Shown here one piece after another: positions 337 through 10,905 of a stretch of 54,111 nucleotides of DNA (positions are counted from its first letter, which is position 1; every line of letters starts with the position of its first letter). Position numbers and translations under genes: made by a program. The notes under the pieces are model-generated. The model saw only the letters and a program-made list of their open reading frames with translations, searched no databases and was not told where the DNA came from. Source of the stretch: Desulfuromonadaceae bacterium UBA5613. Its GTDB lineage: Bacteria; Desulfobacterota; Desulfuromonadia; Desulfuromonadales; UBA2197. The stretch covers positions 97,392-151,502 of the forward strand of contig DIKR01000071.1 of NCBI GenBank assembly GCA_002424625.1, given 5' to 3'.

Positions 337-2226
337 ATGAACAGACTAATCATTCTATTGGCTTCCCTGTTGTTCGTAACGCCTGTCCTGGCGGCCAGCA
401 CAGCTGCGCCTGAAGACCTGAAGGACCTCTATTTCGGTGAGGCTTTGTACTACGCTTATCAAGAGGACTGGTTCGAGGCGATTGCCCGGCTCGACAGTGA
501 GCTTTGGCAGTACCGCGGCCTTGATGAGCCCGAACTCGACTCCCTTTACTCCCATGTTGGGCAGGCCGAGTTTTCCGTGGGGGATTTCGAGCTGGCTTAT
601 CGGATGCATTATCGGGCCGGTCGGGCAATTACCGCGGTTATTGAGGGGAATGTCGAGGACGCAGTCCGTAACGAGGCCATTTTCCGTCTGGCCCGGATCT
701 ACTTCCAGAAAGATCAGCCGGAAAATGCCCAACTGGCTGTGCATCGGATCCGCGGCGTTGTTCCGGTCAAGATCCGCGACGATCTGGCTTTTTTGCGCGC
801 ACATATCGCTCTGGCCAACGGGCGCAATGCCGAAGCGGTCCGTATTCTCAAGGAGCTGCAGAGTGAGAAGAGCCTGGAAGGGTTCAGTTCCTACAATCTC
901 GGGATTGCCCTGTTGCGCAACGCTAACGAGCAGGATGGTCGCAAGGCTCTCGACCGTACGGGCCAGCTTGTCAGCGCTCTTCCGGCCACCCTGGCAATCA
1001 AGGACAAATCGAACCTGGTATTGGGCTACAAATTGCTGGAGGAGCAGAAGCACGAAGGCGCCAAGCTGGTCCTTGACCGGGTGCGTTTAAACGGTCCGTT
1101 CTCTAATCGGGCGCTGCTCGGATCGGGTTGGGCCGACGCATCTGCCGGGAACTTCGAGAGAGCGCTGGTTCCCTGGAGCATTCTTGCGGAACGCGAGGTC
1201 ACTGATCCGGCCGTGCAGGAAGCCCTGCTCGCCTTGCCGTTTGCCTATGGAAAATTGAATGTGCATGGCCGTGCCGCTCTGCTCTATGGCAGTGCTCTAG
1301 CGGCTTTTGGTGGTGAAATCGACAAGCTCAGCGCTTCGATCAAGAGCATCCGTGAAGGGAACTTTTTGCGGGCGCTGGTGCGGGAGGAACTGAAGCAGGA
1401 TGCCAACTGGGTGGTCAAGCTGCGCGAGCTGCCGGAGACCCCCGAGACCTACTACCTCCTGGACTTGATGGCCTCGCACGATTTTCAGGAATCCTTCAAG
1501 AATTACTTTGATCTGGAGGAGCTCCTGAAAAAATTGTCGGCCTGGCAAGGCGCACTCGATGCTTACGAAGATCTCATTCAGTATCGCCGCGCTTATTATC
1601 AACCCCTGCTTCCCGAGATCGACCGGGAGTTCAGACGACTGGACTCGCAGATGCGTCTGCGTCTGGAACAGCGGGAACGGATCGAACAACGCTTGCAGAG
1701 CATGCTGGTGGCGCCGCGCCCTGACTATCTGGCTACCGCCGGGGAGCGGATCTGTAGCGAAGAGTTGACGTCTCTGGAACAAAAGCTGAATGCCGGTGGC
1801 AGCAAAGTGGCGCCCGAGGTTAACGACCGGATCAAACGGTTGCGGGGAGTGCTGGCCTGGAATATTGCAACGGAATATGACCAGCGTTTTACCGATGCTC
1901 ATCTGCACCTGCGCGCATTGAACCAGGAGGTGGATCTGCTCAACCAGCAATACACCGCTTTTGTCCGTACCCGCCAAGCGGCCACTCAGAGCTATGAAGG
2001 TTATGACGAAACGATCCGTCAGCAGCGGCAGCTGATTCAGGCGGCCCGGGAAGAGACGCAGATGCTGATGGCGCGGCAAGGGAGCATGCTTGAGATCATG
2101 GCGGTGAATGAACTGAGCAAACGGCGTGATCGTCTGGATGAATACCAGGTCAAGGCGCGCTTCGCTCTGGCTGATAGTTACGATCGGGCCAGCAAGACCC
2201 AACTCCAGAAGGGTGTCGAGCAATGA
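337..2226 (+). CDS. Secreted TPR-like / coiled-coil protein
   Basis: 629-aa ORF with an N-terminal signal peptide (LLASLLFVTPVLAAS). The N-terminal half has TPR-like helical repeats and the C-terminal half is Q/R/E-rich coiled coil. Its stop overlaps the next start (ATGA at 2223-2226). Confidence 0.75.
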   Translation: MNRLIILLASLLFVTPVLAASTAAPEDLKDLYFGEALYYAYQEDWFEAIARLDSELWQYRGLDEPELDSLYSHVGQAEFSVGDFELAYRMHYRAGRAITAVIEGNVEDAVRNEAIFRLARIYFQKDQPENAQLAVHRIRGVVPVKIRDDLAFLRAHIALANGRNAEAVRILKELQSEKSLEGFSSYNLGIALLRNANEQDGRKALDRTGQLVSALPATLAIKDKSNLVLGYKLLEEQKHEGAKLVLDRVRLNGPFSNRALLGSGWADASAGNFERALVPWSILAEREVTDPAVQEALLALPFAYGKLNVHGRAALLYGSALAAFGGEIDKLSASIKSIREGNFLRALVREELKQDANWVVKLRELPETPETYYLLDLMASHDFQESFKNYFDLEELLKKLSAWQGALDAYEDLIQYRRAYYQPLLPEIDREFRRLDSQMRLRLEQRERIEQRLQSMLVAPRPDYLATAGERICSEELTSLEQKLNAGGSKVAPEVNDRIKRLRGVLAWNIATEYDQRFTDAHLHLRALNQEVDLLNQQYTAFVRTRQAATQSYEGYDETIRQQRQLIQAAREETQMLMARQGSMLEIMAVNELSKRRDRLDEYQVKARFALADSYDRASKTQLQKGVEQ

Positions 2227-5200
2227 GGGCAACGAATTGGCTTCGCTTGAGCGCGTTGGCGCTACCGCTGCTCCTGAGTGCTTGTCAGTCGGGCGGTGGC
2301 AAGGATACGATTGCCAAGTTGCGTCACCTGCAGGTTGAAATCAAGGAAGAGAAGATCGAAGGCGGCCTCGATAAAGCCATGGAGGGTTACCGGCGCTTCC
2401 TGGAAGAAACGCCGGATTCGGAGCTGACGGCCGAAGCGATTCGTCGCCTGGCAGACCTGAAGGTCGAAAGAGAATACGGTCTGCTGGCCGGCAATACCGT
2501 CGCTGCGCGACAGGCCACCGCCAGCGCGTTGCCACCGCCGCAACGGGCGACGGTCGACTCCCCGGCAGCGGTCCCGGCAGCGGAACCGCTGCCAGGTGAA
2601 TCAGCGGCCGACTTTGAGCAAAGAGTGGCCGCAAGTCCGCCGTCCGACCCGGTCGCGGCAGCGAACGGACTTGCCGAAAGTGGGGATGACCTGGAACGGG
2701 CCGGGACTCTGGAAGCCATTGCCCTCTACAAGAAATTGCTGAACGATCATCCCGCCTACGAACGCAATGACCAGGTGTTGTATCAGATGTCCCGTGCTTA
2801 TGAAGAGCTGGGACAGGTCGAAGCGGCCATGGAGGTCATGGACCGGTTGGTGCGGTCTTATCCCCAGTCCCGTTATATCGATGAAGTGCAGTTCCGCCGT
2901 GCCGAATATTTCTTCACCCGCCGGCATTATCTGGAGGCCGAGGCGGCCTACAGCAGCATCATCAGCATCGGTGACACCTCCTCCTATTATCAGCTGGCGC
3001 TCTACAAACTCGGCTGGACCTTTTACAAGCAGGATCTTTATGACGAGGCGCTGCACCGTTTCATTGCCCTGCTCGATTACAAGGTCTCGGTCGGCTACGA
3101 CTTTGCCCAGACCGTGGATGTGCCGGAACGCCAGCGTATTGATGACACCTTCCGGATCGTCAGTCTGAGTTTTTCCAACCTCGGCGGTGCCAACTCGGTG
3201 GTCGAATACTTTCGCAGCTACGGCGCGCGCAGTTATGAGGACGGCGTCTACAGCAACCTCGGGGAATTTTACTATGGTAAGCGCCGCTATGCGGACGCCG
3301 CCGCTACCTACAACGCCTTTGTCAGCCGCAATCCCTTCCACAAGGTGTCACCGCAATTCCACATGCGGGTGATCGAAATCCATCTTGCCGGCGCCTTCCC
3401 CAGCCTGGTCATTGACGCGAAAAAGCAATTTGCCAACAACTATGGACTCAAGGCGGAATACTGGCAGCACTTCGCGCCTGATGCCCGTCCGGAAGTTCTG
3501 GTCTGGCTCAAAACGAACCTGACGGATCTCGCCAATCATTATCACGCGCTTTACCAAAGCCCGCAGCAGCGCAAGGAGAAAGAGAGCAATTTCGCCGAAG
3601 CCATGCATTGGTACCGGGAATTCCTCACCTCCTTTCCGAGCGACCCCGAGTCGCCGGCGGTTAACTATATGTTAGCGGATCTCTTACTGGAAAATCGCTC
3701 CTTTGCGCTGGCGGCGGTGGAATACGAGAAGACCGCCTATGTCTACCCACGCCACGAGCAGTCAGCCGCGGCCGGTTATGCAGCCATTTATGCTTATCGC
3801 GAAGATCTCGGTGGCGCGGTTCCTGCGCGCAAAGAACAGGTGAAACGCGAGGTTGTCCGCAGTTCTCTGCAGTTTGCCGATACTTATCCTGAGCATGAAA
3901 AGGCGGCGCTGGTTCTGGGCGCGGCAGCGGATGATCTCTATGATCTCCGCGATTATGAACCGGCGGCCGCCGCTGCCCGCAAGCTGATCGCGACCTTCCC
4001 CGGCGCCGAGGTCGAGATCGTACGCGCCGCCTGGCTGGTGGTCGGTCACTCCTCTTACGAGCTGCTGCGCTACAGCGAAGCGGAAGCCGCTTATGTCAAT
4101 GTCCTGGCACTCCTCCCGGCCGGGGACGAAAGTCGCGCCGCCCTGAGCGATAATCTTGCCGCAGCTATTTACAAGCAGGGGGAAGCAGCCAATGGCTTGG
4201 CGGATTATCGCGCTGCCGCCGAGCACTTTCTGCGGGTGGGGCAGATCGCTCCGACTTCCAGGATTCGGGTGACCGCGGAGTACGACGCCGCCGCCGCCCT
4301 GATCCAGCTCAAGGACTGGAAGCAGGCAGCGGTGGTGCTGCTTTCCTTCCGCAATCTCTTCCCCGGCGATGCGCTGCAGCCGGAGGTGACCAAGAAGATC
4401 GCCTATGTTTATCGGCAGGACGGTCAACTCGCCTTGGCTGCGGATGAATATGAACGCATCGAAAGAGAGTCCACTAATGATGATGTTCGGCGGGAGGCTC
4501 TGCTGCTCGCTGCTGAATTGCATACGGAAGTCGGAAACAAACCCCGCACCCTGCTGGTCTATCGCCGCTATGTCGATGCCTTCCCGAAACCGCTGGAACT
4601 TAACCTTGAAACCCGCAACAAGATTGCCCTGCTTCTCAAGGAGCAGGGCGATCAGCAAAATTATCTGCGAGAACTGCAAGAGATCGTCAGGCTTGATTTG
4701 GCAGCGGGCCAGGCGCGAACTGTCCGGACCCGCTATCTTGCCGCCACCGCAGCCCTGGTGTTGACGGAACCGAAATTTACCAGTTTCGCGGCAGTTCAGC
4801 TGGTCAAGCCCTTCGATGTCAATTTGCGCAAGAAGCGCGATCTGATGAAGACGGCCACCCAGGAATTCAACAAGCTTCTCGACTATGAAGTCGGGGAAGT
4901 GACGGCAGCGGCGACTTTTTATCTCGCCGAGATCTATGCCCACTTCTGCAAAGCATTGCTGGCATCTGAACGCCCCGAGGGGCTGACTCCGGTAGAGCTC
5001 GAGCAGTACGAGTTGGCCATCGAAGAGCAGGCCTATCCCTTTGAGGATAAGGCGATCGAAGTTCATGAGCAGAATCTCAAATTGCTGACCGTCGGGATCT
5101 ACAACAACTGGATTGACAAGAGTCTGGAGAAACTCGCTCTCTTCGTTCCGGCGCGCTACTCCCGGCCGGAAGAACCGAGCACCATCCTTTCGTCCCTCAG

Positions 5201-5342
5201 CGGCTTCACCTACGAAATCGAGCGGCCGGTCCCGGCGCCGCCTGAGATCGAAGTGCCAGTTCCCGAGACGACTGCGACAGAGCCGACCGCAACAGAAACG
5301 GTGGAGGCAGCTGCTGTGCCATTGGCGCCGGCGGTGAAGTAA
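2223..5342 (+). CDS. Large TPR-repeat lipoprotein
   Basis: 1039-aa ORF with a lipobox (LLLSAC). Many TPR-like repeats (AxxxYxxxG/YxxAxxxF patterns), a Pro/Ala-rich linker after the lipobox and a Pro/Glu/Thr-rich tail. Confidence 0.8.
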   Translation: MRATNWLRLSALALPLLLSACQSGGGKDTIAKLRHLQVEIKEEKIEGGLDKAMEGYRRFLEETPDSELTAEAIRRLADLKVEREYGLLAGNTVAARQATASALPPPQRATVDSPAAVPAAEPLPGESAADFEQRVAASPPSDPVAAANGLAESGDDLERAGTLEAIALYKKLLNDHPAYERNDQVLYQMSRAYEELGQVEAAMEVMDRLVRSYPQSRYIDEVQFRRAEYFFTRRHYLEAEAAYSSIISIGDTSSYYQLALYKLGWTFYKQDLYDEALHRFIALLDYKVSVGYDFAQTVDVPERQRIDDTFRIVSLSFSNLGGANSVVEYFRSYGARSYEDGVYSNLGEFYYGKRRYADAAATYNAFVSRNPFHKVSPQFHMRVIEIHLAGAFPSLVIDAKKQFANNYGLKAEYWQHFAPDARPEVLVWLKTNLTDLANHYHALYQSPQQRKEKESNFAEAMHWYREFLTSFPSDPESPAVNYMLADLLLENRSFALAAVEYEKTAYVYPRHEQSAAAGYAAIYAYREDLGGAVPARKEQVKREVVRSSLQFADTYPEHEKAALVLGAAADDLYDLRDYEPAAAAARKLIATFPGAEVEIVRAAWLVVGHSSYELLRYSEAEAAYVNVLALLPAGDESRAALSDNLAAAIYKQGEAANGLADYRAAAEHFLRVGQIAPTSRIRVTAEYDAAAALIQLKDWKQAAVVLLSFRNLFPGDALQPEVTKKIAYVYRQDGQLALAADEYERIERESTNDDVRREALLLAAELHTEVGNKPRTLLVYRRYVDAFPKPLELNLETRNKIALLLKEQGDQQNYLRELQEIVRLDLAAGQARTVRTRYLAATAALVLTEPKFTSFAAVQLVKPFDVNLRKKRDLMKTATQEFNKLLDYEVGEVTAAATFYLAEIYAHFCKALLASERPEGLTPVELEQYELAIEEQAYPFEDKAIEVHEQNLKLLTVGIYNNWIDKSLEKLALFVPARYSRPEEPSTILSSLSGFTYEIERPVPAPPEIEVPVPETTATEPTATETVEAAAVPLAPAVK

Positions 5343-5348
5343 ACAAAA

Positions 5349-6059
5349 ATGGAAAGCGGTGCCGTAATGCAAACGACTGACAAAGAACAGTTTTCGCGAT
5401 CAAAAGCGCGCCGTCGTGCCGGCTTCGTTGTCCTGATCCTGGCGTTGGCCACCCTGGCGGGGTGTAGCAGCGGGGTCAAGGTGCCGCCCGTTGCCGTCCT
5501 TCCCAAACCTGTCGTGCCAGCGGTCTCCTCGGTAACGCGCCTCGGCGAAGGCAGAGAAGGGTTTGTCATCCAGGAGATTCCCGGTTTCGATGCGGCGGCA
5601 GTCAAAGATTTTGAACGGGCGGTGGTCATGATGCAGTCCGGTGATTATGAGGCTGCGAGTCGCCTGCTGGAAAAAGTAATAAAGCAAGACCCCGGCGTGA
5701 CCGCCCCTTATATCAATCTGGCGATTGCTCGCATGCATGGCAACAAGCCCGAGCAGGCTGAAGAAGCTCTGCAAGCCGCCCTGAAGTTGATTCCCGCCCA
5801 CCCGGTGGCGAGCCATGAATATGGCTTGCTGCTGCGCAAGGCCGGCCGCTTTGCCGAAGCCAGAAAGATCTATGAAGCGAGTCTGCAAGCTTTTCCCGCC
5901 TATAGCCCGGCCCATAAAAATCTCGGGATTCTTTGCGATCTTTATCTGCAAGATCCGGGCTGTGCCCTCGAACATTACGAAAGCTACAGCGCCGCCGTGC
6001 CGATGGATGAGCAAGTCAAAATATGGATAGCCGATCTGCGCGTGCGGCTAAAACGTTAA
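5349..6059 (+). CDS. TPR-repeat lipoprotein
   Basis: 236-aa ORF with a lipobox (LATLAGCSS). TPR motifs are present (GDYEAASRLLEKVIKQDP, HEYGLLLRKAGRFAEARKIYEASLQAFP). Confidence 0.75.
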   Translation: MESGAVMQTTDKEQFSRSKARRRAGFVVLILALATLAGCSSGVKVPPVAVLPKPVVPAVSSVTRLGEGREGFVIQEIPGFDAAAVKDFERAVVMMQSGDYEAASRLLEKVIKQDPGVTAPYINLAIARMHGNKPEQAEEALQAALKLIPAHPVASHEYGLLLRKAGRFAEARKIYEASLQAFPAYSPAHKNLGILCDLYLQDPGCALEHYESYSAAVPMDEQVKIWIADLRVRLKR

Positions 6060-6068
6060 GGAGCGGAT

Positions 6069-6392
6069 ATGTATCGAACTTTAGTTTTCATCCTGTGCCT
6101 CGCGCTCCTGCCGGCTTTCGTGGTCAAGGCGGAGGAGGCGGTTGCGGTCGAGGGGAGTGCTGCGGTCGAGGAAAGTGCGGAGGCCAAGATGATTTCCGGT
6201 ATGTCGATCGTCGGCAACGATGAAGCCCCGAAAGCGCTGTACATCGTCCCTTGGAAAAGCTCTGAAATCGGGGTGGAGACAAGTCTGGCGATGATGTTAA
6301 CTGAAAGTGCCATGCCCGTGGATCGTGAGGTGTTTATGCGCCAATTGGAGTTTTTCGAAGTCAGTATGGAGAGCGCAAGGAGGGATCACTGA
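6069..6392 (+). CDS. Small secreted protein of unknown function
   Basis: 107-aa ORF with a signal peptide (LVFILCLALLPAFVVKAEE). It starts 10 nt after the previous stop. No family recognised. Confidence 0.55.
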   Translation: MYRTLVFILCLALLPAFVVKAEEAVAVEGSAAVEESAEAKMISGMSIVGNDEAPKALYIVPWKSSEIGVETSLAMMLTESAMPVDREVFMRQLEFFEVSMESARRDH

Positions 6393-6456
6393 TGACATTG
6401 GCCTAGGGTGTCTCGGGAGTTTGCTTTTTGATTAACCGCATCATGGAGGAGTACGT

Positions 6457-7107
6457 ATGGATTCTATTTATTCGTTGGTTGGATTTTTTCAGAGTGGAGG
6501 TGTGTTCATGTACCCCATTCTCCTCGTCTTTGCCGTGGGCGTGGCCATCGCGTTCGAACGCTGGGTTCAGTTGAGCCGCACCAGAAACAAGAACCAGAAA
6601 TTATGGGAGTCGCTGCAGCCGGTGCTGGCCGGCGGAGAGTTCGACAATGCCCGGGAAATGGTCAATAAAGACGACTCCGCCCTCGGGCAAATGCTGAGTA
6701 TGGGACTGGCATACCAGGGAGCCGTGCGCCGCCGGGAAGACATCGAAATCGCCATGGAGGAGAGCATGATGGAGATCATTCCGCAGTTGGAAAAGCGGAC
6801 TCCCTATGTCGCACTCTTCTCGAATATTGCCACTCTGCTCGGACTGCTCGGCACCATCATGGGGCTGATCGCGGCTTTTACCGCCGTCGCCAACGCCAAT
6901 CCCGCCGAGAAAGCCGACCTGTTGTCAGCCAGTATTTCCGTGGCGATGAATACCACCGCCTTCGGCCTGATTGCTGCGATTCCACTGCTGATTATCCATG
7001 CCATGTTGACGACAACTACGGCCCGGATCGTTGATAGCCTGGAGATGGTCGCGGTTAAAGCGCTGAACATTATCTCCCATTCCGCCAAGCGAGTTGACCA
7101 TGGCTAA
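6457..7107 (+). CDS. MotA/TolQ/ExbB proton-channel family protein (paralog 1)
   Basis: 216 aa with three TM segments and the conserved TolQ/ExbB C-terminal core (LGLLGTIMGLIAAF...AMNTTAFGLIAAIP). A GGAGGAG RBS lies upstream. Confidence 0.9.
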   Translation: MDSIYSLVGFFQSGGVFMYPILLVFAVGVAIAFERWVQLSRTRNKNQKLWESLQPVLAGGEFDNAREMVNKDDSALGQMLSMGLAYQGAVRRREDIEIAMEESMMEIIPQLEKRTPYVALFSNIATLLGLLGTIMGLIAAFTAVANANPAEKADLLSASISVAMNTTAFGLIAAIPLLIIHAMLTTTTARIVDSLEMVAVKALNIISHSAKRVDHG

Positions 7108-7579
7108 GCGCCAGAGAAAACCCCACATTCCCCCTGAGCTGGATGTCACTACCTTTTTGAATCTGATGGTGGTGCTGATCCCCTTTCTCCTGATAAGCGC
7201 AGTCTTTTCGCGCGTAACCATCATGGAATTGAGTGTGCCGACCGGAGCGGGCGGAACGCCCGACAAGCCGAATTTTACCATCGAAGTGATCATCCGTGAT
7301 TTAGGTTTGGAGATCGCCGATGGTTCAAATGTCATGGCGGCGATTCCGAAAATAGGCGACCAACACGACATGAAGAAGCTGTCCGAACTTCTCGTCCGCC
7401 TTAAAAGCCAATATCCGGAGAAGGAGGATGCGACAGTTTTGATGGAACCGAAGATCGAATACGACTATCTGATTCAGATCATGGACGCAGTCCGTAGCAC
7501 CGATATAGCAACCCCCGGGAGTGTTGCTACGCAGAGAGTAGAACTCTTCCCCAATATATCCATTGGAGATGCGCCATGA
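7100..7579 (+). CDS. ExbD/TolR family biopolymer transport protein
   Basis: N-terminal motif ELDVTTFLNLMVVLIPFLL is the typical ExbD TM segment with a conserved acidic residue. ATG at 7100 is preferred over TTG at 7094. It overlaps the exbB-like stop by 8 nt. Confidence 0.85.
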   Translation: MAKRQRKPHIPPELDVTTFLNLMVVLIPFLLISAVFSRVTIMELSVPTGAGGTPDKPNFTIEVIIRDLGLEIADGSNVMAAIPKIGDQHDMKKLSELLVRLKSQYPEKEDATVLMEPKIEYDYLIQIMDAVRSTDIATPGSVATQRVELFPNISIGDAP

Positions 7580-8073
7580 TAAATAGCCGACGCATAAAAC
7601 GGATGGGGCGCAACAGGAAAAAAATGCCGGGGTTGAATCTGACCTCGCTGATGGATGTCTTTACCATCCTGGTCTTTTTCCTCCTCTTCAACACCGGCGC
7701 CAGTGAAGTTGTGGAGGCGCCCAAACAGATCAAGCTCCCCGACTCGGTGGTCGAGGCCAAGCCGCGGGCGAATACCGTGGTGATCATGATCAGTCATGAC
7801 ATTGTGCTTGTGCAGGGGGAGGCGGTGATCAGCACCGCCGAGCTGCTGAGCGCCAAGAGTGATTTGATCGCACCGATCACCGCACGGCTGAAGTCCCTCG
7901 AGCGCAGCATTATCGGGAGCAGCACTCAAGAGGTCGCGGAAAGCCGGGAAGTCACCATTCTTGCGGATAAAACGATTCCCTTCAGTGTGTTAAAAAAAGT
8001 CATGTCCACCTGCACGGATTCCGGATACGGGAAGATCTCTCTCGCCGTTATCCAGAAAGCGGCGAAGGTTTGA
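7576..8073 (+). CDS. ExbD/TolR family biopolymer transport protein (second copy)
   Basis: LNLTSLMDVFTILVFFLL ExbD-type TM segment. ATGA overlap with the preceding gene. Confidence 0.85.
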   Translation: MINSRRIKRMGRNRKKMPGLNLTSLMDVFTILVFFLLFNTGASEVVEAPKQIKLPDSVVEAKPRANTVVIMISHDIVLVQGEAVISTAELLSAKSDLIAPITARLKSLERSIIGSSTQEVAESREVTILADKTIPFSVLKKVMSTCTDSGYGKISLAVIQKAAKV

Positions 8074-8074
8074 T

Positions 8075-9511
8075 ATGAGTGCCGCAAAGACATCTTTGGC
8101 AGATGAATTGGCTCCACTCCAGGCCCAGATCAAGCAGGAAGAGGAAAATCTCCGGCGGCTGGAAGGTGATCTGCGCACCATCGTGGAAGAAATTGAACTG
8201 TTTTCAGCCGATAAACGCCGCTTCGACGCCCTGCGTGACGTCTGTACCGCCCTTGATACGCTGGGTGAATTGGGCGCCGGGCCGCTCTTCTGGGATGAAC
8301 TGCTCGAAGGACCTTATGTCGCCGGACATCTGCACCGGCTTCGCGAGCATATTGCCGGGTTTGAAGAAGAGATTCGCGGTACCCAGGAAAAGCATGCCGC
8401 TCTCAAAGTGCAGATCAACAAACGACACCACGAACTGAACTTCCTGCACGAAGAGGTACAACAGGCGTATGCCCGTGAGGAACGCCGGAATGAAGAGTTC
8501 CTCGTCGAACGGGAAGTTTCTCCCCTCCCTTTCCGCGAAATGGTTATGCCTTGGAACAACAAGGATGAAGGGGAAAAACGTTACCATCTGGCCTTGCTGG
8601 TCGCTGTCCTGCTCTCGATCGGTTTTGGCTCGCTGATTCCCCTGTGGCGACTGCCGGTCCCGGACCGTTCGGCCGTGGTTGAGATTCCGGAACGTCTGGC
8701 CATGCTGGTGAAAAAGGAGCAGGCCAAACCGGCGCCGATACCGAAGGGCCCAAAAGAAGAAAAGAAGCCCGACAAAGAGCAGGAAAAAGTGCAGGAGCAA
8801 AAGACGAATGACCAGCCCAAACCAGCCAAAACGCCCGTTGAAACGGCGAGTGCGAGTAAAAAAGCGGAGAGTACAGGGATTCTGGCCTTCAAGGAGACCT
8901 TTAGCGACCTGATGGACGTCACTCCCGTGCCGCGGCTCGGCGTTCAGTCCCATCTGATCAACCAGTCCGGGGCGGCAGGTCAAGCCAGTCGTTCGCTGGT
9001 GGCCATGCAGTCAGCGGGCGGTTCCGGTGGTATTGGCAATGCCGCAGTCAGTCGCAATATCGGTAGTGGTACTGGTACTGGCAGTGGAACTGGCGGCGGT
9101 AGTGGCAGCGGTAGCGGCACGGGCAATCGTCTTGGCGGTGTGGGGGTTGCACGAGTCGAAAGTACCGTAGCGGGGCTGACGGAAGAGGCGCGGCCCTTGA
9201 GCACGGGGACCGGTCCGGCCCGAACCGATGAAGAGATTCAGATCGTCTTCGATAAATACAAAGCCACGCTGTATCGGATCTATAACGCCGAATTGCGCAA
9301 GAACCCGACCCTGCGCGGCAAGATGATCCTGCGCCTCACCATCGAACCGGGGGGCGAAGTCTCCGCCTGTACGGTGCCGTCGACCGATCTCGCTTCACCG
9401 GAACTGGTCGCCCAGATTGTCGATCGCGTCAAAAAGTTTAATTTCGGACCGAAGGAGAAGGTCCCCACCACCACCATCTTGTACCCGATTGATTTCCTCC
9501 CCGCCGGCTAG
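8075..9511 (+). CDS. Atypical TonB-like energy transducer with an AgmX/PglI-type C-terminal domain
   Basis: 478 aa. About 170 aa of cytoplasmic coiled coil, one TM segment (HLALLVAVLLSIGFGSLIPLW), a K/P/E-rich linker and a GS/GT low-complexity tract. The C-terminal TonB-like fold pattern is YNAELRKNPTLRGKMILRLTIEPGGEVSACTV...FNFGP. It starts 1 nt after the exbD stop. Confidence 0.75.
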   Translation: MSAAKTSLADELAPLQAQIKQEEENLRRLEGDLRTIVEEIELFSADKRRFDALRDVCTALDTLGELGAGPLFWDELLEGPYVAGHLHRLREHIAGFEEEIRGTQEKHAALKVQINKRHHELNFLHEEVQQAYAREERRNEEFLVEREVSPLPFREMVMPWNNKDEGEKRYHLALLVAVLLSIGFGSLIPLWRLPVPDRSAVVEIPERLAMLVKKEQAKPAPIPKGPKEEKKPDKEQEKVQEQKTNDQPKPAKTPVETASASKKAESTGILAFKETFSDLMDVTPVPRLGVQSHLINQSGAAGQASRSLVAMQSAGGSGGIGNAAVSRNIGSGTGTGSGTGGGSGSGSGTGNRLGGVGVARVESTVAGLTEEARPLSTGTGPARTDEEIQIVFDKYKATLYRIYNAELRKNPTLRGKMILRLTIEPGGEVSACTVPSTDLASPELVAQIVDRVKKFNFGPKEKVPTTTILYPIDFLPAG

Positions 9512-9585
9512 GGCCTGACCGGGGCAACAAGTACAACAAGATCAAGAAGTTAACGAGCCAACCACAATATTCAGGAGGTAAGACA

Positions 9586-10218
9586 ATGATTGCATTTTTT
9601 CTCGATGGCGGGTTGTTCATGTGGCCAATTTTGTTGGTGTTCCTAGTCGGCATGGGCATCGCTGGTGAGCGCTGGTATCATTTGAGCCGCACCAAGATCA
9701 AAAGCCGTAACATGTGGAATCTGCTCCATCCGGTGCTGGTCCAGGGCGAATTCGATCAGGCCCGGGACATGGTAGAAAAGGATAACTCCGCGCTTTCGCA
9801 AATGCTGAGCATGGGGCTTGCGGTTCAGGGGTCTGGCCGGCGGCGGCAAGACATTGAAATTGCCATGGAAGAAAGCATGATGGAGATCATTCCGGATCTG
9901 GAACAACGGACCCCTTATGTGGCGCTTTTCTCCAATATTGCCACCCTGCTCGGGCTGCTCGGTACCATCATGGGTCTGATTGCGGCGTTCACCGCCGTCG
10001 CCAATGCCAACCCCGCCGAAAAGGCTGACCTGTTGTCCGCCAGTATCTCGGTCGCCATGAATACCACCGCCTTCGGTCTGATCGCCGCGATTCCGCTGCT
10101 GATTACCCACGCCATGCTGACGACCACCACCGCCCAGATCGTCGACAGCCTCGAAATGGCCTCAGTAAAGGCGCTGAATATTATCTCGAATTCTGCCAGG
10201 CGTGTTGACTTGTCCTGA
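9586..10218 (+). CDS. MotA/TolQ/ExbB proton-channel family protein (paralog 2)
   Basis: 210 aa with the same architecture as 6457..7107 and a nearly identical C-terminal core. AGGAGG RBS upstream. Confidence 0.9.
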   Translation: MIAFFLDGGLFMWPILLVFLVGMGIAGERWYHLSRTKIKSRNMWNLLHPVLVQGEFDQARDMVEKDNSALSQMLSMGLAVQGSGRRRQDIEIAMEESMMEIIPDLEQRTPYVALFSNIATLLGLLGTIMGLIAAFTAVANANPAEKADLLSASISVAMNTTAFGLIAAIPLLITHAMLTTTTAQIVDSLEMASVKALNIISNSARRVDLS

Positions 10219-10353
10219 CCTCCACCCGGTCGGCGGCCACCCTCTCGGGAGATGAGGGGGTGCTTTATGAATGTTGCACAAAATTAACGTAACGACTGTA
10301 CCTCGTCAGGTGTTCGGCACCTTAACCCTCAACCTTCAATTAAAGGATAACCA

Positions 10354-10905
10354 ATGTCTCGAGGATTCTTATTCTGTTTGGTCGTCACCCTGGTCTTCAG
10401 CGCGGGATGCGCAACGAAGAAGATTCAGGAAGAAACCACACTCACTCCGCCCCCGCCCCAAACCTTGTCACCTCCCGTCGACATCCCGCCTCCGGTTGCA
10501 GCCGTGGATCAGGATGTCGCTGCCGAAACTGTAGCGGAGGAACCGCAAGTCGTGGTGGCACCGCTACCGACCTCTGTACTGCAGAACGTCCCCTTCGAAT
10601 ACGATCAGCATCTGTTGAGCGACTCTGCCCGGGAGATTCTGGCCGCCAATACGGCAATCCTCATGGCACAAGACCGCTTGCAGGTGACCCTCGCCGGGTA
10701 TTGCGACGAACGCGGTTCGGATCAGTACAACATTGCCCTCGGCGAGCGACGGGCCGAGGCGGTACGCAACTATCTCCTTTCCCTCGGGATCAGCGCAGGC
10801 CGTCTGGAGGTCGTTTCGTACGGCGAAGAAAAACCCCTCGATGCAGGGCACGATGAGGACGCCTGGGCCAAGAATCGTCGCGTCGAATTCGTGCCGATGT
10901 TGTAA
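10354..10905 (+). CDS. Pal-like peptidoglycan-associated lipoprotein (OmpA C-terminal domain)
   Basis: Lipobox (VFSAGC), a Pro-rich linker and an OmpA_C motif set (FEYDQHLL...GYCDERGSDQYNIALGERRAEAVRNYL...NRRVEF). Confidence 0.85.
   Translation: MSRGFLFCLVVTLVFSAGCATKKIQEETTLTPPPPQTLSPPVDIPPPVAAVDQDVAAETVAEEPQVVVAPLPTSVLQNVPFEYDQHLLSDSAREILAANTAILMAQDRLQVTLAGYCDERGSDQYNIALGERRAEAVRNYLLSLGISAGRLEVVSYGEEKPLDAGHDEDAWAKNRRVEFVPML

Follow-up and report, generated by a model that had tools for sequence, protein, structure and literature searches.

Which envelope machine is encoded by ten neighbouring genes that combine TolQ/ExbB- and ExbD/TolR-type motor subunits with tetratricopeptide repeat (TPR) proteins, a TonB-like protein and a Pal-like lipoprotein, and what does this machine act upon? 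The question is raised by a stretch of 54,111 nucleotides (hereafter the window) from Desulfuromonadaceae bacterium UBA5613 (assembly GCA_002424625.1, contig DIKR01000071.1, positions 97,392 to 151,502), in which these genes lie at positions 337-10905. On gene order, product sizes and protein families, the locus is assigned as an orthologue of the published Agl-Glt 'core complex' (termed Group B in Luciano et al., 2011). We consider it reasonably probable that it works as a proton-driven, envelope-spanning force transducer, with an outer-membrane protein encoded upstream (gX) as its partner and a giant fibre protein as its load.

Relationship of the locus to the Agl-Glt core complex

The core complex was described as gltC, gltD, gltE, gltG, aglR, aglQ and aglS plus one extra gene, gathered at a single locus. 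In 2011 it was reported in about 20 genomes, its carriers being Geobacter, several Gammaproteobacteria, one Betaproteobacterium and Fibrobacter, and its function was unknown (PMC3169522). In Geobacter uraniireducens, Gura_3077, 3076, 3075, (3074), 3073, 3072, 3071 and 3070 are the homologues of GltC, GltD, GltE, the extra gene, AglR, AglQ, AglS and GltG, respectively, and Gura_3077, 3076 and 3075 were assigned to MXAN_2541, 4870 and 4869 (PMC3169522, Table S3 for the full set). The products of the G. uraniireducens genes have 629, 1108, 240, 211, 166, 166 and 484 residues, no size being given for Gura_3074 (PMC3169522, Table S3); those of the window, in the same order and with the extra gene included, have 629, 1039, 236, 107, 216, 161, 165 and 478. 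Order, sizes, families and arrangement as a single co-directional unit are the same in the two, and downstream the window has two additional genes, a second one of TolQ type and a Pal paralogue. A matching set is present in Geobacter sp. M21 (GM21_0438-0445; PMC3169522). The two Geobacter strains of that paper now belong to Geotalea and Geomonas, and loci from these genera were collinear with the window at 45-73% identity.

Protein families were assigned by Pfam and NCBIfam scans, and signal peptides and lipoboxes were read from the translations. The genes of the locus are as follows.

337-2226, + strand: gene 1, 629-residue secreted protein with helical structure and weak TPR character; corresponds in position and size to the GltC homologue Gura_3077 (629 residues)
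2223-5342, + strand: gene 2, 1039-residue TPR lipoprotein (lipobox LLLSAC); equivalent to the GltD homologue Gura_3076
5349-6059, + strand: gene 3, 236-residue TPR lipoprotein (lipobox LAGC); equivalent to the GltE homologue Gura_3075 (240 residues)
6069-6392, + strand: gene 4, 107-residue secreted protein of no family, in the position of the 'additional gene' of the core complex
6457-7107, + strand: gene 5, TolQ/ExbB-family channel subunit of probable AglR type, 216 residues (PF01618, 87 bits)
7094/7100-7579, + strand: gene 6, ExbD/TolR-family subunit, 161/159 residues depending on the start (PF02472)
7576-8073, + strand: gene 7, ExbD/TolR-family subunit, 165 residues (PF02472)
8075-9511, + strand: gene 8, GltG-type TonB-like transducer, 478 residues (NF033768, 61.4 bits against a cut-off of 40)
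9586-10218, + strand: gene 9, second TolQ-type subunit, 210 residues (MotA_ExbB); within-family paralogue of gene 5
10354-10905, + strand: gene 10, Pal paralogue of 183 residues, a peptidoglycan-binding outer-membrane lipoprotein by family (TIGR02802, 127.7 bits against 125.35; lipobox SAGC)

An earlier interpretation made from the letters of the window (the sequence-only reading) had listed ten co-directional genes of these types; the open reading frames agree with it, and for most of them the family scans returned the types that it had claimed. Its translational couplings are also found in the coordinates: ATGA overlaps occur at 2223 and at 7576, and gene 8 begins at 8075 after a gap of 1 nt; the 8-nt overlap that it placed at 7100 holds if gene 6 starts at the ATG at that position. 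Two of the three TPR proteins are lipoproteins, as it had stated, since genes 2 and 3 carry lipoboxes. Its comparison of the locus to the Agl-Glt core is borne out by the match to Gura_3077-3070 and by the collinearity of related loci. A core complex of this kind had been published before; our literature search found no later paper assigning a function to the core outside Myxococcus and Bdellovibrio, and a paper on TonB in Teredinibacter and one on the Pelobacter genome leave this cluster untreated.

Conservation of the neighbourhood was assessed in 80 related loci, fetched with a 10-kb limit on the flanks, and one genome per species was scanned for relatives of gene 8. The order of genes 1-8 was kept in every one of the 80 loci in which the contig was long enough, with identities of about 45-86%. 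Conservation of the neighbourhood, across Desulfuromonadales, is what the sequence-only reading had proposed to check. A relative of gene 8 was present in at least 587 species genomes, including metagenome-assembled genomes (MAGs) labelled Nitrospirota, Gemmatimonadota and others. The subfamily to which the locus belongs has its carriers in Geobacteraceae, Desulfuromonadales, Desulfobacterales and Nitrospirota. Its distribution is patchy: the locus was found in two of three other genomes of the same genus and in 17 of 61 relatives overall, and a close orthologue occurred in two of 301 genomes drawn evenly from the phylum. Such a patchy spread fits the horizontal transfer inferred by Luciano et al. 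(PMC3169522).

More distant cores were sampled in the GTDB phylum of the window only. They have the order GltC-like, GltD-like, GltE-like, small gene, TolQ, TolR, TolR, GltG-like, and a search of this phylum sample turned up no GltG equivalog. These cores, at 22-43% identity, lie at L129:16466-25974 (genome G209) and in loci L137 (G396), L136 (G271), L133 (G269) and L131-L132 (G079).

The periplasmic proteins of the locus were characterized further. Gene 1 gave only weak TPR-like matches in Pfam and NCBIfam and was 59-84% identical across related loci. Gene 2 matched TIGR02795 at 109.1 bits (cut-off 90.1) in three stretches, which are TPR modules of the CpoB/YbgF type, and also carries a BamD-like module (TIGR03302, 75.5 bits). 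The statement in the sequence-only reading that the window has no TolA, TolB or CpoB stands in part: neither TolA nor TolB is present, and gene 2 itself holds the three CpoB/YbgF-type modules. The CpoB/YbgF- and BamD-type modules, at about residues 150-230 and 640-790, form a sequence-level tie between the Glt core and the accessory lipoproteins of the Tol-Pal and Bam systems. Gene 3 belongs to TPR families and matched the GltE model weakly (23.5 bits). Gene 4 had no family match in the Pfam and NCBIfam scans; in nearly all related loci it keeps its place after the GltE-like gene and before the AglR-like one. The extra gene of the core complex has no homologue in Myxococcales (PMC3169522).

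Gene 8 encodes, from N- to C-terminus, a cytoplasmic coiled coil of about 170 residues, one transmembrane helix, a linker rich in Lys, Pro and Glu, a conserved middle segment, a Gly/Ser linker and an AgmX/PglI domain. The AgmX/PglI tail had been recognized in the sequence-only reading, and the match of gene 8 to NF033768 given above agrees with it. An alignment of relatives showed conservation over the full length of the protein, including the roughly 170 residues of the coiled coil. The GltG equivalog model (NF033760) covered residues 207-476 only and scored 52 bits against a cut-off of 650, and TonB_C scored 19.1 bits, under its cut-off of 24.6. Family scans found no FHA domain in gene 8; in Myxococcus GltG, FHA domains form part of the cytoplasmic region (PMC11761067), where the window's protein has the coiled coil. 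Searches of PDB sequences with genes 1 and 8 returned no solved relative. Gene 8 is the sole protein of the genome with an AgmX/PglI tail, which argues that the genome has no second transducer of GltJ type.

Genes for gX, gY and a giant fibre protein upstream of the core

The sequence-only reading had begun the gene cluster at position 337. This start proved too late: positions 1-261 are the 3' part of a conserved upstream gene, and the predicted operon extends about 14 kb upstream on the same contig (C4). Clustering of the flanking open reading frames of the related loci revealed two further conserved co-directional genes before gene 1, named gY and gX, the latter appearing cut in the related loci by the 10-kb flank limit. 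A giant gene precedes gX in the window's genome. The three upstream genes are as follows.

C4:83358-91907: giant fibre gene, 2849 residues, directly upstream of gX with a 14-nt overlap
C4:91894-97113: gX, 1739 residues, with three OmpA-like repeats of peptidoglycan-binding type, then a middle region, and at the C-terminus the signature of an outer-membrane beta-barrel
1-261 of the window, + strand: 3' part of gY (about residues 95-180 of a secreted protein of about 180 residues), 85% identical to gY of locus L017 (tblastn)

The giant protein has a Sec signal peptide, ten DUF11-type repeats and three isopeptide-forming fimbrial-type domains, and also carries DUF7619, DUF7927, DUF7507 and SdrD_B. 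In fibrillar adhesins, DUF11/CLIPPER, DUF7507, DUF7619 and SdrD_B make up the stalk, as Ig-like modules cross-linked by bonds of isopeptide type (bioRxiv 10.1101/2025.04.25.650565). Linkage of the giant gene to the core was examined in further genomes. A protein of 2247-3744 residues was encoded directly upstream of gX in eight of nine genomes inspected, and the DUF11/DUF7619/DUF7927/SdrD_B architecture was also found in two further genomes that were scanned. The last 150 residues of the fibre are its best-conserved part (62-73% identity); length and content are variable in the N-terminal half. For Desulfuromonas soudanensis, a cultured species with a complete genome, NCBI gene calls give successive products of 4379 residues (DUF11/SdrD_B), 1692 (OmpA), 172, 629, 1092, 227 (TPR) and 99 residues, followed by MotA_ExbB, ExbD, ExbD and a protein of 472 residues.

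The gX and gY genes are similarly linked to the core. Among related loci with enough upstream sequence, 46 of 56 carry gY and 47 of 50 carry gX. Full-length gX (54-75% identical) adjoined the core in all 12 genomes searched. More than 3330 homologues of gX exist, annotated only as 'OmpA family' or 'MotB'. Domain scans of gX revealed no Plug or TonB_dep_Rec domain, and Foldseek comparison of its barrel region returned LptD and TonB-dependent transporters at TM-scores of 0.13-0.30. The modelled region is consistent with a large outer-membrane barrel of roughly 30 strands, to which no family can be assigned. Paralogues of gX, of about 1700-2300 residues with OmpA-like domains and 32-34% identity in the middle region, also occur away from the core (G003:C1:520987-523074, G006:C2:763314-765209, G007:C1:641263-642294, G009:C1:227595-230204 and G010:C4:282885-284819).

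In relatives, gY encodes about 175 residues and usually ends 4 nt before gene 1. Its AlphaFold model (pLDDT, for predicted local distance difference test, of 81) combines a long helix with a beta-sandwich and gave no PDB match at E below 0.001. A run of 39 N at C4:97353-97391, immediately ahead of window position 1, interrupts gY in the window's genome; the closest relative shows 61 bases at this place. A real frameshift was rejected: the N run is an assembly gap or mask and the gene is not broken.

In one Nitrospirota MAG the fibre gene and gX form a single frame of 4553 residues, either a true fusion or an assembly error (G005:C1:363858-368984, in the genome of locus L039; L100). It was not used as evidence, because the fibre gene and gX overlap out of frame in the window's genome and a single indel error could create such a fusion. 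The paper describing the core complex (PMC3169522) is silent on gY, on the triple-OmpA barrel and on the giant fibre upstream.

Motor subunits and the Tol-Pal and Ton alternatives

Genes 5, 6 and 7 encode one TolQ/ExbB-type subunit followed by two of ExbD/TolR type and are contiguous and overlapping (PF01618, then PF02472 twice). The sequence-only reading had taken the locus to resemble the Agl-Glt core rather than Tol-Pal or a TonB uptake system, and the scores set its stator proteins apart from the latter two. Genes 5 and 9 scored 61.7 and 56.4 bits with the TolQ model (cut-off 221) and 44 and 41 bits with the ExbB model (cut-off 206). Genes 6 and 7 scored 23 and 25 bits with the TolR model (cut-off 127) and 30 bits or less with ExbD models (cut-offs 153-216). 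The genome's real TolQ and TolR, in contrast, pass. Gene 5 was equidistant from solved TolQ and ExbB (33.6 and 33.5 bits) and 26% identical to the genome's own TolQ, which lies on a very long branch of the tree. The models, the tree and the comparison with solved structures all set the stator proteins of the locus apart from TolQ, ExbB, TolR and ExbD.

A complete Tol-Pal system is encoded elsewhere in the assembly, which is 2.38 Mb in size and 92% complete. A canonical tolQ-tolR-tolA-tolB-pal-cpoB cluster lies on contig C7, and its products score at or above the equivalog cut-offs (TolQ 249.8 against 221; TolB 365 against 343). The genome has three MotA_ExbB and three ExbD genes in total, which are accounted for by TolQR plus the window locus.

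Gene 9 is 80% identical to gene 5 in protein and 77% in nucleotides. Over residues 114-190, spanning the second and third transmembrane helices (TM2-TM3), the two proteins are 100% identical, and third codon positions there are only 55-70% identical; over the whole genes, different codons are used at 75 of 169 identical residues. Recent gene conversion between the two genes is ruled out by the 30-45% third-codon differences in the identical stretch. These differences point to old duplicates under strong purifying selection. This constraint fits a role for both copies with the same TolR-like partners, around which the two might be mixed within one pentamer or build separate, alternative motors. 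In the tree, the second TolQ copies all grouped within the family, and they must have arisen at least twice. Of 63 loci, 21 had a second TolQ gene directly after gene 8, 23 had a Pal-like gene within 3 kb downstream, and 13 had both. The second TolQ and the Pal paralogue are optional additions.

The two TolR-like subunits differ at the proton-relay site. In gene 6 (residues 15-30; LDVTTFLNLMVV, compared with LNLTPMMDI), asparagine occupies the position of the relay aspartate of TolR, ExbD and MotB, and an aspartate is found seven residues earlier, at a site that is asparagine in those families. In an alignment with the genome's TolR and 72 orthologues, the site was Asn in 53 of 73 sequences and Asp in 20, the 20 with the canonical pattern coming from Nitrospirota and Geobacteraceae. 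Gene 7 keeps the canonical transmembrane aspartate (LMDVFTIL), which was Asp in 72 of 72 orthologues. AglQ and AglS of Myxococcus, unlike gene 6, have both been described with the relay aspartate (PMC9389320).

Several of these features would be expected of a second, specialised Tol-Pal-like system that tethers and remodels the outer membrane and peptidoglycan (in envelope integrity, lipid homeostasis or constriction), with the fibre as an unrelated neighbour. A proton-driven motor of the TolQ/TolR family, a lipoprotein of Pal type and TPR modules of CpoB type are common to the locus and Tol-Pal. Gene 10 is a genuine paralogue of Pal (50% identity to the genome's canonical Pal, E 5e-52), the CpoB/YbgF-type modules of gene 2 score above cut-off, gX has three OmpA-like peptidoglycan-binding domains, and TolQ is the best-scoring stator model, though far under its cut-off. 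The canonical cluster on C7 argues against such a role, as do the lack of TolA and TolB homologues in the locus and the distance of its stators from the TolQ and TolR cut-offs. The Pal paralogue accompanies fewer than half of the loci, the patchy occurrence among relatives is unlike that of a housekeeping envelope system, and the giant gene is linked in nearly all genomes inspected, with its C-terminus best conserved. We regard a second Tol-Pal-like system as unlikely.

A Ton-like role would have gene 8 opening the gX barrel for import or for secretion of something other than the fibre, or serving other TonB_C proteins of the genome. The C-terminus of gene 8 belongs to a TonB-like fold family, the genome has two TonB_C proteins and no ExbB/ExbD pair besides TolQR and the locus, and a TonB-dependent transporter takes part in protein secretion in Myxococcus (Oar/PopC; PMC6434023). 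Against such a role, an exbBD pair may lie unassembled in the roughly 8% of the genome that is missing. The locus contains no ExbB or ExbD equivalogs and, like the region upstream, no Plug or receptor domain; gX itself lacks Plug and TonB_dep_Rec domains, the ExbB, ExbD and TonB_C models all scored under their cut-offs, and the elaborate TPR scaffold has no Ton counterpart. The sequence-only reading had reported no TonB-dependent receptor in the window; none was found there or just upstream, and a tolB gene, also looked for just upstream, was not there either. A search of the genome for TonB-dependent receptors gave one weak Plug match, which was unconfirmed by hmmscan. A Ton-like energiser is, in our judgement, quite improbable.

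The two TonB_C proteins mentioned above are orphans, on contigs C44 (L014:7997-8743) and C40 (L015:4801-5712). The former adjoins a histidine kinase, a response regulator and two large open reading frames (829 and 1034 residues) without a Pfam match.

A proposed fibre-handling machine

The Glt-core reading builds on the gene content of the locus, its protein families, its orthology to the published core, its linkage to the giant genes and the presence of a separate Tol-Pal system. For stoichiometry, protein contacts and output, we infer from homology and gene linkage. In common with the gliding machine Agl-Glt of Myxococcus xanthus and its spore-coat paralogue Agl-Nfs, the locus encodes a motor of TolQR type whose two TolR-like subunits differ, a transducer of GltG type ending in an AgmX/PglI domain and, probably, periplasmic TPR proteins of the GltD, GltE and GltC types. 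The Myxococcus machines are proposed to reach across the envelope to a barrel complex of the outer membrane and to an adhesin or polymer at the surface (PMC11761067, PMC3858216), and such a link would be a further common feature. In the AlphaFold model of Agl-Glt, the motor is AglR5QS, the transmembrane helix of GltG lies on AglR, and the GltG linker wraps GltD; GltE sits on GltD, and GltC docks on the outer-membrane barrels (PMC11761067). Within the locus, no gene was assigned to GltA, B, H, K, F, I or J or to CglB. Myxococcus has three small barrels, and the window's genome instead offers one candidate outer-membrane partner of 1739 residues.

By analogy, a pentamer of gene 5, perhaps mixed with or replaced by gene 9, would surround a heterodimer of genes 6 and 7, in which only gene 7 holds the canonical proton-relay aspartate. 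Proton flow would move the membrane anchor of gene 8, and its periplasmic linker, crossing the peptidoglycan, would together with the TonB-like tail engage the gene 2 scaffold along with genes 3 and 1. The likely outer-membrane partner would be gX, as the counterpart of the barrels docked by Myxococcus GltC. The likely load would be the 2849-residue, Sec-exported fibre of isopeptide-type Ig domains, and the result would be energised export, display, tensioning or movement of this fibre. The Pal paralogue and the second TolQ would be optional accessories. Proton-driven handling of a giant fibre at the outer membrane is our best guess at the output. The more specific and more general proposal, that throughout a widespread subfamily the Glt motor drives export, anchoring, tension or movement of a fibre of 2000-4400 residues through or on a gX mega-barrel of about 1700 residues, is put forward tentatively, as a possibility that is somewhat doubtful in this full form.

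Several observations weigh against this reading. The distant cores of the phylum sample are without the giant barrel and the fibre, two of them having a gY-like gene; the barrel and fibre would therefore be a subfamily trait and not a universal load of Glt-type cores. One of the nine genomes inspected (G003) has gX without a giant gene in front. The model of the gX barrel had a mean pLDDT of 49.9 and a predicted template modelling score (pTM) of 0.35. For a putative common transcript of the giant genes and the core, promoter and terminator scans were at chance level. With asparagine in the relay position, gene 6 may be a subunit that conducts no protons. The assignment of genes 1-3 as probable GltC, GltD and GltE homologues relies on the published assignment and on weak NCBIfam matches. 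Finally, our search of the literature found no experiment on any member of the subfamily.

A gliding engine carrying the giant adhesin over the surface of the cell, suggested by homology to the core of the Myxococcus gliding machine and by linkage to an adhesin-like fibre, as gliding motors are linked to CglB or SprB (PMC11761067, PMC8986121), is very improbable, since the Group A genes needed for motility are absent from the locus, the core alone has been argued not to drive gliding (PMC3169522), and gene 8 has a coiled coil in place of the GltG FHA region. We know of no report of gliding in the carriers Desulfuromonas soudanensis, Geotalea uraniireducens or Geomonas.

A functional analogy to the force transducer proposed here, and no more than an analogy, is offered by Salmonella pathogenicity island 4 (SPI4), in which the MotAB/ExbBD-like proton channel SiiAB assists the adhesin SiiE. 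The two share a proton-conducting stator-type complex and a giant Ig-repeat adhesin, encoded together in a single cluster, and peptidoglycan binding (bioRxiv 10.1101/641415). SiiE leaves by type 1 secretion, whereas the window's fibre has a Sec signal peptide and its operon contains no ABC transporter or TolC-type gene. SPI4 also lacks the TPR scaffold and the TonB-like transducer present in the window.

The locus itself is ordinary, as hundreds of copies exist; what the present analysis adds is its complete operon context and the variants of its subunits. Luciano et al. argued that understanding the core would explain the gliding and spore-coat machines of Myxococcus (PMC3169522). The operon context turns an output that had been called unknown into a hypothesis that is testable in culturable, partly genetically tractable metal reducers. 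The Asp-to-Asn variant of the TolR-like subunit and the conserved second TolQ provide natural variants for the debate on proton conduction in 5:2 motors with heterodimeric axles. If the proposed mechanism is true, the ancestral, pre-gliding function of Agl-Glt would have been to move an adhesin relative to the cell wall, and diderm bacteria would possess a new display route for giant Sec-dependent surface proteins. In organisms of the Desulfuromonas and Geobacter type, such a fibre could be important where cells adhere to minerals, electrodes or partner cells.

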